From: a virus
Lineage: Duplodnaviria > Heunggongvirae > Uroviricota > Caudoviricetes
IMG/VR virus record: IMGVR_UViG_2695420589_000009
Length of the DNA stretch: 4,466 bases
Reading direction: 5' to 3' (one strand)
Shown: positions 82 to 4,466 of the stretch, one piece after another
Layout of the letters: each line of letters starts with the position of its first letter
Numbering within the stretch: position 1 is the first letter of the stretch
Notes under the pieces: model-generated
The model's input: the letters and a program-made list of their open reading frames with translations, nothing else
The model's database searches: none
Told to the model about the DNA's origin: nothing
Position numbers and translations under genes: made by a program

Positions 82-1164
82 TTGAAAAAATTAACAGTGG
101 CAATTTCTGCTGTAGCTGCATCAGTACTGATGGCGATGTCTGCTCAGGCAGCTGAAATTTATAATAAAGACAGTAACAAGCTGGATCTGTACGGGAAAGT
201 TAATGCTAAGCACTACTTCTCCTCTAATGATGCAGATGATGGTGATACTACTTATGCCCGTCTTGGCTTCAAAGGTGAAACCCAAATCAACGATCAACTG
301 ACTGGTTTCGGTCAGTGGGAATATGAATTCAAAGGCAACCGCGCTGAATCTCAAGGTTCCTCCAAAGATAAAACCCGTCTTGCCTTCGCTGGCCTGAAAT
401 TCGGTGACTACGGCTCCATCGATTACGGCCGTAACTACGGTGTAGCATACGACATCGGTGCGTGGACTGACGTCCTGCCAGAATTCGGTGGTGACACTTG
501 GACTCAAACAGATGTGTTCATGACTGGTCGCACCACTGGTGTTGCAACTTATCGTAACAACGACTTCTTTGGTCTGGTTGATGGTCTGAACTTTGCTGCT
601 CAGTATCAGGGTAAAAATGACCGCACTGACGTAACTGAAGCTAATGGTGATGGTTTCGGTTTCTCCACTACTTATGAGTATGAAGGATTCGGTGTAGGTG
701 CAACCTATGCTAAATCTGACCGCACTAATAATCAGGTTATCTACGGTAACAACAGCCTGAATGCATCTGGTCAAAATGCTGAAGTATGGGCAGCTGGTCT
801 GAAATATGATGCGAACAACATCTATCTGGCTACCACCTATTCTGAAACCCAGAACATGACTGTTTTTGGTAATAACCATATTGCCAACAAAGCACAAAAC
901 TTCGAAGTAGTTGCACAATATCAGTTCGACTTCGGTCTGCGTCCGTCCGTTGCTTACCTGCAATCTAAAGGAAAAGACTTGGGTGCGTGGGGTGATCAGG
1001 ACCTGGTTGAATATATTGATGTAGGTGCAACCTATTACTTCAACAAAAATATGTCCACTTTTGTTGATTACAAAATCAACCTGATTGATAAGAGCGATTT
1101 CACGAAAGCATCTGGCGTTGCTACCGATGATATCGTTGCTGTAGGTATGGTTTACCAGTTCTAA
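82..1164 (+). CDS. nmpC: Outer membrane porin, OmpC/OmpF/PhoE family, prophage-encoded NmpC/Lc(OmpD)-like; start codon appears to be TTG
   Basis: 360-aa ORF with a typical signal peptide ([23 protein letters not shown], cleavage after AQA), porin motifs and the beta-barrel C-terminal ...VYQF. The sequence matches my memory of E. coli NmpC almost along its whole length. Codon 82-84 is TTG and no Shine-Dalgarno is visible within 15 nt upstream. Confidence 0.9.
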
Positions 1165-2643: not shown

Positions 2644-2806
2644 GATTCCTCCTTGCTGCCAGTCGCAACCATTTTTTATCAACCAGGCTAGCGGTATATC
2701 CGAGCAGTGTTGGTATTTCGGATGGCTTCAGCTCAGGCTTACGCTTACGACGATTTGATACTCTGTAGATGTGCCCGTTCATGACACGAATAAGCGGTGT
2801 AGCCAT
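2636..2806 (-). CDS. ninE: NinE-family protein (56 aa)
   Basis: Not in the ORF track. My translation: [56 protein letters not shown]. It is basic and Arg/Lys-rich and resembles lambda NinE (KRKP...WLR..AR). Its ATG overlaps the ybcN stop (TAATG) and its 3' end overlaps the ybcO start by 8 nt. Confidence 0.7.
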   Translation of the reverse strand: MATPLIRVMNGHIYRVSNRRKRKPELKPSEIPTLLGYTASLVDKKWLRLAARRNHG

Positions 2807-3261
2807 TACGCCTCCTGCTTATCGCGCAGCTGCTGGTATTCACAGCTCTGCGGAATTGTCAGGTGGCAGCCGATATTCATCGCCCAGGCTTCGACTTTGC
2901 ACAGGAAGATGTACATCTCGCCGGTTTCCAGCTCTGACGTATGGCGGAGGGATTGGACGGTGGTGACCTCGCCGGACACGACATCTACACGGTCTTTGCT
3001 TTCGTAGCCGAGATAGGTGTGCTTCATCGCGTCTTTGACCCACTCAGGCGTAGCGAAGGTCTTGCCGCGGGCGATGAGATATTCGCTGATCTCCGTGTAC
3101 CACATGTGGCTGAGCGCGTTCTGCGACAGGCTGCGCTTCTCGCGCCACGGCTTAACCTGCAGGCGTAAGCATTGCCCGGCATCCAGCAATGGCTGAATCT
3201 GCTGGCCGATGGCCGCGAAGTTACCGCGATGGAGTTTGATGCCGTCTACTGGCAGAGTCAT
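2806..3261 (-). CDS. ybcN: YbcN-like (DUF1367) nin-region protein
   Basis: 151-aa ORF MTLPVDGIKLHRGNFAAIGQQIQPLLDAGQCLRLQVKPWREKRSLSQNALSHMWYTEI..., with SD GGGAGG upstream of ATG 3261. Position and length match DLP12 ybcN. Confidence 0.85.
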   Translation of the reverse strand: MTLPVDGIKLHRGNFAAIGQQIQPLLDAGQCLRLQVKPWREKRSLSQNALSHMWYTEISEYLIARGKTFATPEWVKDAMKHTYLGYESKDRVDVVSGEVTTVQSLRHTSELETGEMYIFLCKVEAWAMNIGCHLTIPQSCEYQQLRDKQEA

Positions 3262-3353
3262 ACGGCCTCCCTAACGGAAACCGCAGAATGCAGAAAATCG
3301 CAGGTGCATTTCTGCATCTGTGACAAGGTGATGAGTTCAGATTGTGGTCGCAT
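3258..3353 (-). CDS. Small ORF (31 aa), possibly YlcH-like, translationally coupled to ybcN
   Basis: My translation: MRPQSELITLSQMQKCTCDFLHSAVSVREAV. SD AAGGGG lies 6-7 nt upstream of its ATG. Its TGA overlaps the ybcN ATG (ATGA). Too short to call confidently from sequence alone. Confidence 0.4.
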   Translation of the reverse strand: MRPQSELITLSQMQKCTCDFLHSAVSVREAV

Positions 3354-3372
3354 TTAAGTCCCCTTAAATGCG
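3349..3372 (-). promoter_or_regulatory. 10-bp-stem hairpin (CGCATTTAAG / 4-nt loop / CTTAAATGCG) enclosing the SD and start codon of the small ORF
   Basis: Perfect inverted repeat. On the - strand mRNA the loop is GGGA (part of the SD) and the AUG lies in the 3' arm of the stem. Confidence 0.35.
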
Positions 3373-3483
3373 CAGAAGTCACCGGAGTTGTTCAGGCTCC
3401 GATGAGAGGATTATGGCGGATTGATTACGATAAATCAAAACTATCTTGAAGCCAAAACAGTGATCTTCGCTTTAAAAACCTTG

Positions 3484-3489
3484 TATACT
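3484..3489 (+). promoter_or_regulatory. Candidate -10 hexamer (TATACT) for the AT-rich cassette; no convincing -35
   Basis: TATACT lies 36 nt upstream of ATG 3526, preceded by TTG. The best -35-like element (TTGAAG, 3446..3451) is too far away to pair with it. Weak call. Confidence 0.2.
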
Positions 3490-3525
3490 TTCACCTAATC
3501 ACAGCCAGAACTATGGATCTAACCA

Positions 3526-3903
3526 ATGACCAACAAAGAAAACAAAGATAAATATATTAACAAGTTCAAGAAAGAGCTTTCAAAATATATACAACCAACT
3601 GCTGGAGTGGACATTCAATTATTTAACTCTAAGGATGGTGGTGGTGTAATTAAAGCCACTTTGAATAGAAGTGGAAAAAGAAAATCATCTATTGCTGGTA
3701 ATTTTACTAAATTAGGTGAGGCAATTACCTCGAGTGGGCAGAGGGTTTTTGGTGGTGATCTATCAAATGTGAATTTTTACGGAACAAATACGATTTTTGA
3801 TGGAGATACAATATTTTTAATTAAATCACCTGATTCAGAGGAGTGGTCATCACAAAAAGCTTCCAAAGACGTAGAGGGCATCGTATTTGGAGGGAAAAAA
3901 TGA
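3526..3903 (+). CDS. Hypothetical soluble protein, 125 aa, Lys-rich N-terminus and Gly-rich beta-like middle; first gene of the AT-rich cassette
   Basis: ORF in strongly AT-rich DNA with AT-biased codon usage. Only a weak SD (GGA about 8 nt upstream). No signal peptide or TM segment. Stop overlaps the start of the next ORF (ATGA). I recognise no family. Confidence 0.7.
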   Translation: MTNKENKDKYINKFKKELSKYIQPTAGVDIQLFNSKDGGGVIKATLNRSGKRKSSIAGNFTKLGEAITSSGQRVFGGDLSNVNFYGTNTIFDGDTIFLIKSPDSEEWSSQKASKDVEGIVFGGKK

Positions 3904-4328
3904 TTAACATTACTACTAAGGATGGCACTCAAGTCAGTGGTGAAGTAAGAGATCTAGTAATTCTTCTTGAAACTGATGGAAAAACGGTGTCTGATTATTT
4001 GCAGCCAATCCCTCCCAAAAAAGATACACACTGGAGCATGATTTTCATTCCGGTAGCAATTTATATACTACTTAATCTTGTATACATTATTGCTCACCCA
4101 TTATTTCCTGAAAAATATCTAAAAACATCAACATCTATATTTCTATTCATTTCCTTCATATTAAGTGCAATAGTAGCATATTTTGTTTTCCATAAGCATA
4201 AATCTGCCACTCTATCCATATGCAGCTTAGTGTTCTTAGTGTTAATTGTAGGTGCTAACGTAGGGTTTATCAGTTACAGCGACCTAACACAAAAAGCGAC
4301 GCAAAAATTAGATAGTTTGTCTAAATAA
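3900..4328 (+). CDS. Hypothetical small membrane protein, 142 aa, soluble N-terminal ~45 aa then three predicted TM helices; second gene of the AT-rich cassette
   Basis: ATG at 3900 preceded by SD GGAGGG with 5-nt spacing. Hydrophobic segments MIFIPVAIYILLNLVYIIAHPLF, SIFLFISFILSAIVAYFVF and LSICSLVFLVLIVGANVGFISY. The GTG at 3843 in the ORF track is an in-frame upstream extension that I reject. Confidence 0.75.
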   Translation: MINITTKDGTQVSGEVRDLVILLETDGKTVSDYLQPIPPKKDTHWSMIFIPVAIYILLNLVYIIAHPLFPEKYLKTSTSIFLFISFILSAIVAYFVFHKHKSATLSICSLVFLVLIVGANVGFISYSDLTQKATQKLDSLSK

Positions 4329-4335
4329 TTATGTT

Positions 4336-4356
4336 GCCATGCGAAGTATGCATGGC
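4336..4356 (+). terminator. Stem-loop GCCATGC / GAAGTAT / GCATGGC just after the cassette stop, followed by palindrome CCATTTAAAATGG (4371..4383); weak terminator candidate
   Basis: Inverted repeats are seen directly; no clean U-tract follows. Confidence 0.2.
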
Positions 4357-4435
4357 TGCATGTCTGCCTTCCATTTAAAATGGGCTAAGACCTATAACCC
4401 TAAATATTATTCTTTATTATCTTCTTTACCACTTC

Positions 4436-4466
4436 GGTGATGCTGCCAACTTACTGATTTAGTGTA
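4436..4466 (+). mobile_element. Left end (IRL) of insertion sequence IS1, truncated by the window edge
   Basis: GGTGATGCTGCCAACTTACTGATTTAGTGTA matches the IS1 left terminal inverted repeat and the following bases as I remember them. Only 31 bp are in the window. Confidence 0.7.

Follow-up and report, generated by a model that had tools for sequence, protein, structure and literature searches.

The DNA analysed here (IMG/VR record IMGVR_UViG_2695420589_000009, 4,466 nt, hereafter the window) carries two small overlapping genes, which we call A and B, between replication gene P and the nin genes of a lambdoid prophage. A DLP12-like lambdoid prophage, read in reverse, fills the window, as judged from its list of open reading frames (ORFs), from BLAST, and from the RefSeq annotation of the near-identical regions of Escherichia coli A7 and CV839-06; the relative from strain A7, with an intact prophage, is referred to as L001 and the CV839-06 locus as L002. 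The original prediction, made from the letters of the window, held that a soluble protein of 125 residues and a 142-residue protein with three transmembrane (TM) segments form a candidate novel superinfection-exclusion or abortive-infection module, and the ORFs, the hydrophobicity, and RefSeq agree with that description of the two genes. The cassette and its immediate flanks comprise the following features.

3441-3525, plus strand: cassette-specific upstream region, beginning where homology to K-12 DLP12 stops (3440)
3526-3903, plus strand: gene A, ATG start, 125 residues (ORF; RefSeq hypothetical protein WP_000182282.1)
3900-4328, plus strand: gene B, ATG start at 3900, 142 residues (ORF; RefSeq hypothetical protein WP_000608370.1)
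4336-4356, plus strand: inverted repeat read from the sequence, with a 7-bp stem (GCCATGC/GCATGGC) and a 7-nt loop
4382-4400, minus strand: terminator-like hairpin and T-run, GGGTTATAGGTCTTAGCCC ATTTTAAATG, from the terminator scan; right border of the cassette, just downstream of P
4407-4435, minus strand: 3' end of replication gene P (last codons and stop), right flank of the cassette, from the alignment to L001
2806-3261, minus strand: ybcN (YbcN family), first gene of the nin block and left flank of the variable spot (ORF; annotation of the identical region; K-12 equivalent)

Structure and candidate expression signals of the A/B cassette

The two genes overlap by ATGA, the ATG of B (3900-3902) lying on the TGA stop codon of A (3901-3903), and the Shine-Dalgarno sequence GGAGGG (3889-3894) precedes the B start codon by 5 nt, as had been predicted for a coupled pair with a strong signal for the second gene. 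At its longest the B frame opens at GTG 3843; the 142-residue form opens at ATG 3900. In comparison to relatives that are 66-76% identical, the ratio of nonsynonymous to synonymous substitution (dN/dS), obtained with a saturated dS, was 0.08 for A and 0.08-0.13 for B, and both genes are under purifying selection. Because dN/dS is in this range (0.08-0.13) and full-length homologues exist, we conclude that A and B are real coding genes.

The G+C content, measured over intervals of 200 nt, changes from 0.53-0.59 over 2801-3400 to 0.325-0.365 over 3401-4100. Gene A has 34.1% G+C and gene B 33.6%, compared with 50.1% for the block from quuD to ybcN, and among the 11 other loci that were checked the cassette had less G+C than its flanks in 9. 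A composition break near position 3420 had been proposed and is close to the end of K-12 homology (3440), whereas the G+C that was read by eye as a quarter to a third is in fact a third. All of the neighbouring phage genes (quuD, rusA, ybcO, ninE, ybcN, and P) are on the minus strand and A and B are on the plus strand, in keeping with the predicted placement opposite the early/nin operon. The claim that the pair lies inside the nin region needs correction, as the cassette sits at the junction between P and the nin genes, and the interval assigned to it (3420-4435) ends with 29 nt that belong to P (4407-4435). The alignment of the window with L001 runs to 4436 and places the end of the P coding sequence at L001 position 13028, which equals window position 4407. 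In K-12, DLP12 has emrE-ylcJ-ybcK-ybcL-ybcM-ylcH at the position of the cassette, the different cargo that had been anticipated, and a stretch homologous to ylcH, a small K-12 gene of 33 residues, is kept in the window at 3253-3354 (minus strand), between ybcN and the breakpoint at 3440. The description of the cassette as a horizontally acquired moron is upheld by its foreign composition, its opposite strand, its absence from the K-12 spot, and its recurrence in mosaic prophages.

A -10-like hexamer, TATACT, is present at 3484-3489, 36 nt ahead of the A start codon, with a weak -35 candidate, GTGATC (3460-3465), at a spacing of 18 nt. A TATA-rich -10-like element is found at a constant distance from the start codon in the diverged relatives L003, L005, L008, and L027, and the L008 version is a perfect TATAAT; on the basis of this conserved hexamer we infer a candidate promoter for the cassette. 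The inverted repeat at 4336-4356 begins 8 nt past the B stop codon, is without a T-run, and was not reported by the terminator scan, and its role in termination is uncertain. The minus-strand hairpin at 4382-4400 presumably corresponds to lambda tR2 in position. Since this terminator-like hairpin stands just after P, early rightward transcription can arrive at the nin genes only by passing through the cassette in antisense. No Rfam family matched anywhere in the window.

Protein families and their pairing

The family searches used single sequences and profiles of 9, 16, and 68 sequences. Neither A nor B gave a Pfam match at threshold or any match to NCBIfam, PADLOC-DB v2.0.0, or PDB sequences, in agreement with the earlier statement that no family could be assigned. 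The suggested search with PADLOC came back empty (no component hidden Markov model (HMM) match for A or B at E ≤ 10), and no confident homology to a non-defence function was found. A literature search on the accession numbers and phrog ids retrieved no paper.

Protein A has no hydrophobic segment and is a soluble protein, presumably of the cytoplasm, whose family is uncharacterised; it matches PHROGs phrog_18061, an exact family of unknown function. A word-indexed search returned only close enterobacterial relatives (at least 60% identity), and an exhaustive profile search with A yielded 111 representative clusters at E ≤ 1e-3, of which 30 reached E ≤ 1e-10. The relatives are nearly all 120-135 residues long with end-to-end matches, and A-like clusters were found in Pseudomonadota, Bacteroidota, Nitrospira, and Myxococcales. 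Among the named sources are E. coli, Shigella sonnei, Enterobacter, Klebsiella, and Citrobacter of the Enterobacteriaceae, as well as Acinetobacter, Mesorhizobium, Chryseobacterium, Nitrospira, Neptuniibacter, Nitrosomonas, Salinisphaerales, Syntrophaceae, Myxococcales, and Mariniflexile. All entries bear the annotation 'hypothetical protein', and the clusters sampled are small, with 1-6 members each. In the alignment of 68 members Lys100 (K100) is invariant and Y10, G39, F84, G86, T87, W107, and D115 are nearly so; just one of these 68 sequences matched Pfam, weakly, to XPD_arch (E = 0.0018). The AlphaFold 2 (AF2) model of A, built on a shallow alignment, is of low confidence (predicted local distance difference test (pLDDT) 58.5; predicted template modelling score (pTM) 0.61) and has its elements in the order alpha-beta-beta-(disordered)-alpha-beta-beta-alpha.

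Protein B matches PHROGs phrog_16940, likewise an exact family of unknown function, and its Pfam hits are generic, sub-threshold matches of TM type (best 21.4 bits, with a cut-off of 29). It has three hydrophobic segments, at approximately residues 43-70, 74-100, and 100-129, and its AF2 model (pLDDT 67.6, low confidence from a shallow alignment) shows helices at 44-68, 71-100, and 103-141 with a beta-hairpin-helix head. All of the partners have the same build, consisting of a soluble head of 30-40 residues, three hydrophobic helices, and a short polar tail, and they share an (R/H)-x-K loop between TM2 and TM3; the motif in the head is MINITTKDGTQVSGEV... in the enterobacterial proteins and MKIGPVEGTPEEV..NGL..DYF in the environmental ones. 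Across 20 B sequences the TM2-TM3 loop contains 2.0 K/R and 0.1 D/E per sequence, compared with a neutral TM1-TM2 loop. A positive TM2-TM3 loop would, according to the positive-inside rule, place the head in the cytoplasm and the tail in the periplasm, and B is predicted to be an inner-membrane protein with three TM helices, a conserved head of ~36-40 residues, and an N-in topology.

HMMs were built for A and B and run against every ORF of all fetched loci. A match to B was located directly downstream and on the same strand in 52 of the 55 loci with a match to A, so the co-occurrence proposed as a check on the original prediction was indeed found. The three exceptions are L017, whose contig ends 107 nt after A, and L019 and L020, where the A domain is part of a fusion with an HNH nuclease. 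This fusion protein (P0104, L019/L020 246-1589, 447 residues) contains an A-type domain at 7-119, an HNH endonuclease at 191-231, and a C-terminal half that is uncharacterised; its gene is not followed by B. The overlap of B with the A stop codon by 4 nt is usual and is present in 8 of the 10 loci from the genome-contig search, and the pairwise identities of A and B co-vary (Spearman rho 0.78 for 153 pairs, which are not independent). We conclude that the two genes are coupled in translation and that, across several bacterial phyla, they are inherited together and diverge together.

Genomic contexts and the flanking prophage

Lambdoid prophages carry the pair in the gap that separates their replication genes from the first nin gene, which may be ybcN, NinB, or DUF1367, and its strand is invariably the opposite one. 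The carrier prophages are mosaic, with replication genes of the lambda O/P, DnaB, or DnaC/IstB type, with different Q types, and with head genes that are lambda-like or P22/Mu-F-like. A Citrobacter pair with identities of 31% (A) and 19% (B) occupies the same region, with several small ORFs between the pair and the DUF1367 gene. In L008 (7665-9348) the P/ninB hotspot holds, beside A/B, a colicin-like gene (377 residues, weak Colicin match) and an immunity-like gene (174 residues, weak Colicin_im match), which indicates that this spot accumulates several cargo modules. An unrelated phage has the pair between its early genes and lysis cassette, and in a Chryseobacterium prophage, which also carries a Bro-N/BstA_C gene, the pair is near the integrase.

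Other copies are located outside prophages. On a plasmid-like 4.8-kb contig the stop region of a Replicase/PriCT_1 rep gene overlaps A, and MobC and relaxase genes come after B. In L021 the pair forms one cassette of an integron array, exactly between attC-like repeats at 4919-5058 and 5833-5972. The array (1694-5972) is of integron type, with repeats of ~140 nt that have GCCTAAC...GTTAGGC ends and internal inverted repeats and that flank every cassette; the neighbouring cassettes encode BrnA (BrnTA), a Gp49/HTH (HigBA-type) pair, two related GNAT acetyltransferases, and a Ymh-family protein. In L011, from a marine metagenome-assembled genome, the pair is downstream of ligA, and the stretch at 8875-11879 holds four unannotated genes (212, 220, 148, and 323 residues, without a Pfam match) and then an Xre-MbcA/ParS-type antitoxin gene; this stretch after A/B may be a small accessory islet. 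The other environmental chromosomal copies sit among housekeeping genes.

The cassette was found in 48 of 5426 complete E. coli genomes (~1%), always as a single chromosomal copy, with carriers that include uropathogenic E. coli (UPEC) 536, F11, and probiotic strains. Prophages of Shigella, Klebsiella, Enterobacter, and Citrobacter also carry the pair, the exact A/B proteins are abundant in Shigella sonnei records, which suggests that the window derives from Shigella or E. coli, and IMG/VR contains 18 prophage-derived copies. The cassette was absent from the 72,556 plasmid records of PLSDB. The pair is a self-contained, horizontally mobile two-gene operon that is carried as a moron at the replication/nin junction.

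The remainder of the window consists of the following features.

82-1164, plus strand: intact ompC/nmpC-type (OmpC/NmpC-type) porin gene, 360 residues
1388-3261, minus strand: quuD, ylcG, rusA, ybcO, ninE, and ybcN (ORF list and RefSeq annotation)
4436-4466, strand not assigned: terminal 31 nt of IS1, inserted in P (100% identity over 31 nt to the annotated IS1A end of L002)

The K-12 DLP12 counterpart of the porin gene is nmpC, which is interrupted by IS5. The IS1 copy was inserted near the 3' end of P, and since P is cut by it the prophage copy in the window may be replication-defective. In strain A7 the intact relative makes up a complete prophage that adjoins tRNA-Arg and fimZ. Its immunity region (L001 16484-18132) has an ImmA/IrrE metallopeptidase gene and a DUF4411 gene, and the immunity region of L006 (15685-16446) encodes a KilA-N/BstA_C protein; both are candidate defence cargo.

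Known systems and the role of the pair

Morons that combine a small sensor with a membrane effector are of a known kind; the A/B protein family itself is unannotated and is undescribed in the literature examined. As extra DNA at a fixed position that is replaced in K-12 DLP12 (where homology ends at 3440), the cassette resembles HK97 gp15, lambda bor/lom, and P22 sieA/sieB in its deviant composition, its location between conserved phage genes, its variable presence, and its orientation for independent expression. Unlike those morons, it consists of two genes, and its family reaches well outside phages and Enterobacteriaceae; neither A nor B was similar to any of them in PHROGs or Pfam annotation.

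The original prediction had likened the pair to lambda RexA/RexB, and as an analogy of logic this comparison stands. RexAB is a prophage-encoded, lysogen-expressed two-gene pair in which a cytoplasmic protein is accompanied by a small inner-membrane protein with several passes, with 144 residues in RexB compared with 142 in B, and its sensor activates a membrane-depolarising effector, the same logic that is proposed below for A/B. A relationship, in contrast, was not detectable by hhalign. A (125 residues) is less than half the size of RexA (279 residues), RexB has four TM helices in comparison to the three predicted in B, and B has a soluble N-terminal head; moreover, the A/B pair, on the opposite strand, has its place at the P/ybcN junction and not next to cI, and the repressor region is ~3 kb away in the intact relative. 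The Rex Pfam families (RexA PF15969-type and RexB PF15968-type) did not match A or B, and no Rex protein was among the fold matches. On the basis of these differences in homology, size, TM count, and location we reject membership in RexAB.

Among published systems the closest analogue of the pair is Sucellos (SclA/SclB; preprint 10.1101/2024.07.02.601686), which is described as a two-gene cassette of the Vibrio cholerae superintegron that requires both genes and acts by abortive infection. According to the same preprint, one TM partner is predicted to be pore-forming, the system also occurs in enterobacterial prophages, is frequent in Salmonella (~98% of S. Enteritidis genomes), and is RexAB-like in predicted structure (10.1101/2024.07.02.601686). 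The A/B relative in L021 is also a single attC-flanked cassette, and both systems are found in prophages; A/B shows no RexAB similarity, in which it differs from the description of Sucellos. The novelty claimed for the module is qualified by Sucellos, a two-gene, RexAB-like system of integrons and prophages that follows the same logic. No named Salmonella or Vibrio protein was present among the A relatives sampled.

Toxin-antitoxin (TA) modules offer another comparison, in that a compact two-gene operon on mobile elements is what A/B presents (4-nt overlap; plasmid, integron, and prophage carriers). In YgfY(CptB)/YgfX(CptA) a soluble protein is followed by a small membrane protein, YgfX having two TM helices, at a core chromosomal locus. 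A/B has a similar order in one operon, with a small soluble protein and then a multi-pass inner-membrane protein, but is sporadic and borne by mobile elements, and no Pfam or NCBIfam match linked it to YgfY/YgfX or another known TA family. Two further candidates were rejected: holin/antiholin (no holin Pfam match, and the lysis genes essD-rrrD are beyond quuD and ompC on the other strand) and pore-forming colicin immunity (no Colicin_im match at threshold and no colicin gene in the window). Rip1 and HepS are unrelated single-protein systems.

The interpretation that we favour, as a real possibility that falls somewhat short of probable, is that A/B is a mobile conflict module with B as its membrane effector, acting in abortive infection or exclusion with or without an addiction role. 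B would form oligomers in the inner membrane and so bring about a loss of membrane potential or integrity, and A would bind the cytoplasmic head of B, either holding B off or switching it on when A senses a product of the infecting phage. With the head of B and A itself both predicted to be cytoplasmic, the topology is compatible with an action of A on the head. A weak promoter of its own would drive the pair in the lysogen, and during lytic growth of the prophage convergent, antiterminated early transcription through P would oppose, and so silence, expression of the cassette. The fusion of A to an HNH nuclease without B, an apparent swap of effector, fits A as a sensor or regulatory module, and abortive infection by Sucellos with its pore-forming TM partner indicates that such logic exists. 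The effector swap and the contexts favour defence. A TA module would suit the plasmid and integron contexts just as well, and one role does not preclude the other. A defence function is plausible, if unproven, and is strengthened by the conserved pairing and by the range of mobile-element contexts. More doubtful is the wider proposal that A/B represents a new multi-phylum abortive-infection family, with A as a portable sensor that would drive a three-TM protein in trans or an HNH nuclease in cis, in a module small enough to serve as a prophage moron, as plasmid cargo, or as a single integron cassette.

Several results weigh against a conflict module. DNA and protein searches of 50,697 GenBank phage genomes did not find the cassette, and among Enterobacteriaceae the pair was seen only in resident prophages. 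The 84 neighbours in ten environmental genomes belong mostly to housekeeping families, with two transposases, and only a handful matched defence models, such as an SNF2 helicase matching DrmD and some PDC candidates; defence islands are not clearly enriched, so that the neighbourhood survey suggested with the original prediction bore out recurrence in prophages but gave no clear defence-island signal in these genomes. A scan of the plus strand upstream of A for the sigma-70 consensus found no full site, the A-HNH fusion is known from one protein on two short contigs of related samples, and hhalign of A and B with lambda RexA and RexB gave probabilities of <1%. In E. coli CV839-06 (L002 8147-9726) A is split by another IS1 insertion and B is intact, and in L046 and L054 A is intact and B is altered or apparently truncated; these variants indicate that loss of the module need not be obviously harmful. 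As natural single-gene knock-outs, the three loci could inform the question of toxin and antitoxin.

It is unlikely that A/B is purely an addiction module, with B as a membrane toxin and A as its antitoxin, that stabilises its carrier element and has no anti-phage role. The small overlapping genes directly after a plasmid rep gene, beside BrnTA and HigBA cassettes, and in prophages are what such a module would show, and the gene order resembles that of YgfY(CptB)/YgfX(CptA), but the A-HNH fusion is more easily understood as a sensor with an alternative effector than as an antitoxin, and B survives intact in CV839-06 where IS1 has cut A, although polarity on B could explain this survival. Many chromosomal copies, moreover, are among housekeeping genes, where addiction is without obvious benefit, and no known TA family in Pfam or NCBIfam matched. 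We consider it distinctly unlikely that the pair serves an accessory membrane function outside genetic conflict, such as ion or stress homeostasis or bacteriocin immunity. It is true that several environmental copies have housekeeping genes on both sides and no mobile-element marker in the vicinity, that L008 has a colicin-like and immunity-like pair in the same hotspot, and that proteins of ~110-180 residues with three TM helices are typical of immunity to pore-forming colicins; nevertheless, no Colicin_im or transporter family matched at threshold, colicin immunity has nothing analogous to the constant soluble partner, the L008 colicin pair is made up of separate genes, and the distribution of A/B is sporadic, low in G+C, and borne by mobile elements.

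Superinfection exclusion at entry, in which B would block DNA injection like SieA, Imm, or HK97 gp15 with A as a helper, is very unlikely in our estimation. Although a small inner-membrane protein at a moron-like lambdoid position on the opposite strand is suggestive of it, the known superinfection-exclusion proteins are usually single genes fitted to particular phage-host pairs, whereas this pair spans Enterobacteriaceae to Bacteroidota, Nitrospira, and Myxococcales and occurs outside prophages as well, and both the HNH fusion and the obligate partner in the cytoplasm suggest that sensing is intracellular. That A/B is a diverged member of Sucellos or of another RexAB-like pair is highly improbable. 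The shared outline of two genes, one TM partner, a single integron cassette, and enterobacterial prophages is set against the RexAB likeness described for Sucellos, since A is shorter than RexA (125 compared with 279 residues), B has three TM helices, and alignment with lambda RexA and RexB gave the <1% already stated, and against the reported presence in ~98% of S. Enteritidis compared with the sampled A relatives, which include no named Salmonella or Vibrio protein. A function in the phage lytic cycle, as holin/antiholin or as a replication accessory, is scarcely credible: a small multi-pass membrane protein encoded in a phage genome would fit it, but the genes are on the strand opposite to that of the early and late operons, essD-rrrD-rzpD forms a lysis cassette elsewhere, no holin family matched, and the pair is also found on a plasmid, in an integron, and at non-phage chromosomal sites.

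If A/B is a defence or addiction module, it adds to the minimal membrane-effector immune systems a family for which Pfam, NCBIfam, and PADLOC have no model. Its carriage by ~1% of complete E. coli genomes and by other enterobacterial prophages makes it relevant to host range in phage therapy. The P/ninB junction of lambdoid prophages is marked as a cargo hotspot by emrE/ybcKLM, by the colicin-like pair, and by two versions of A/B that are 31% identical, and it is worth systematic mining. With a size of ~800 bp, the module is a tractable model for the control of a small membrane effector by a soluble partner.

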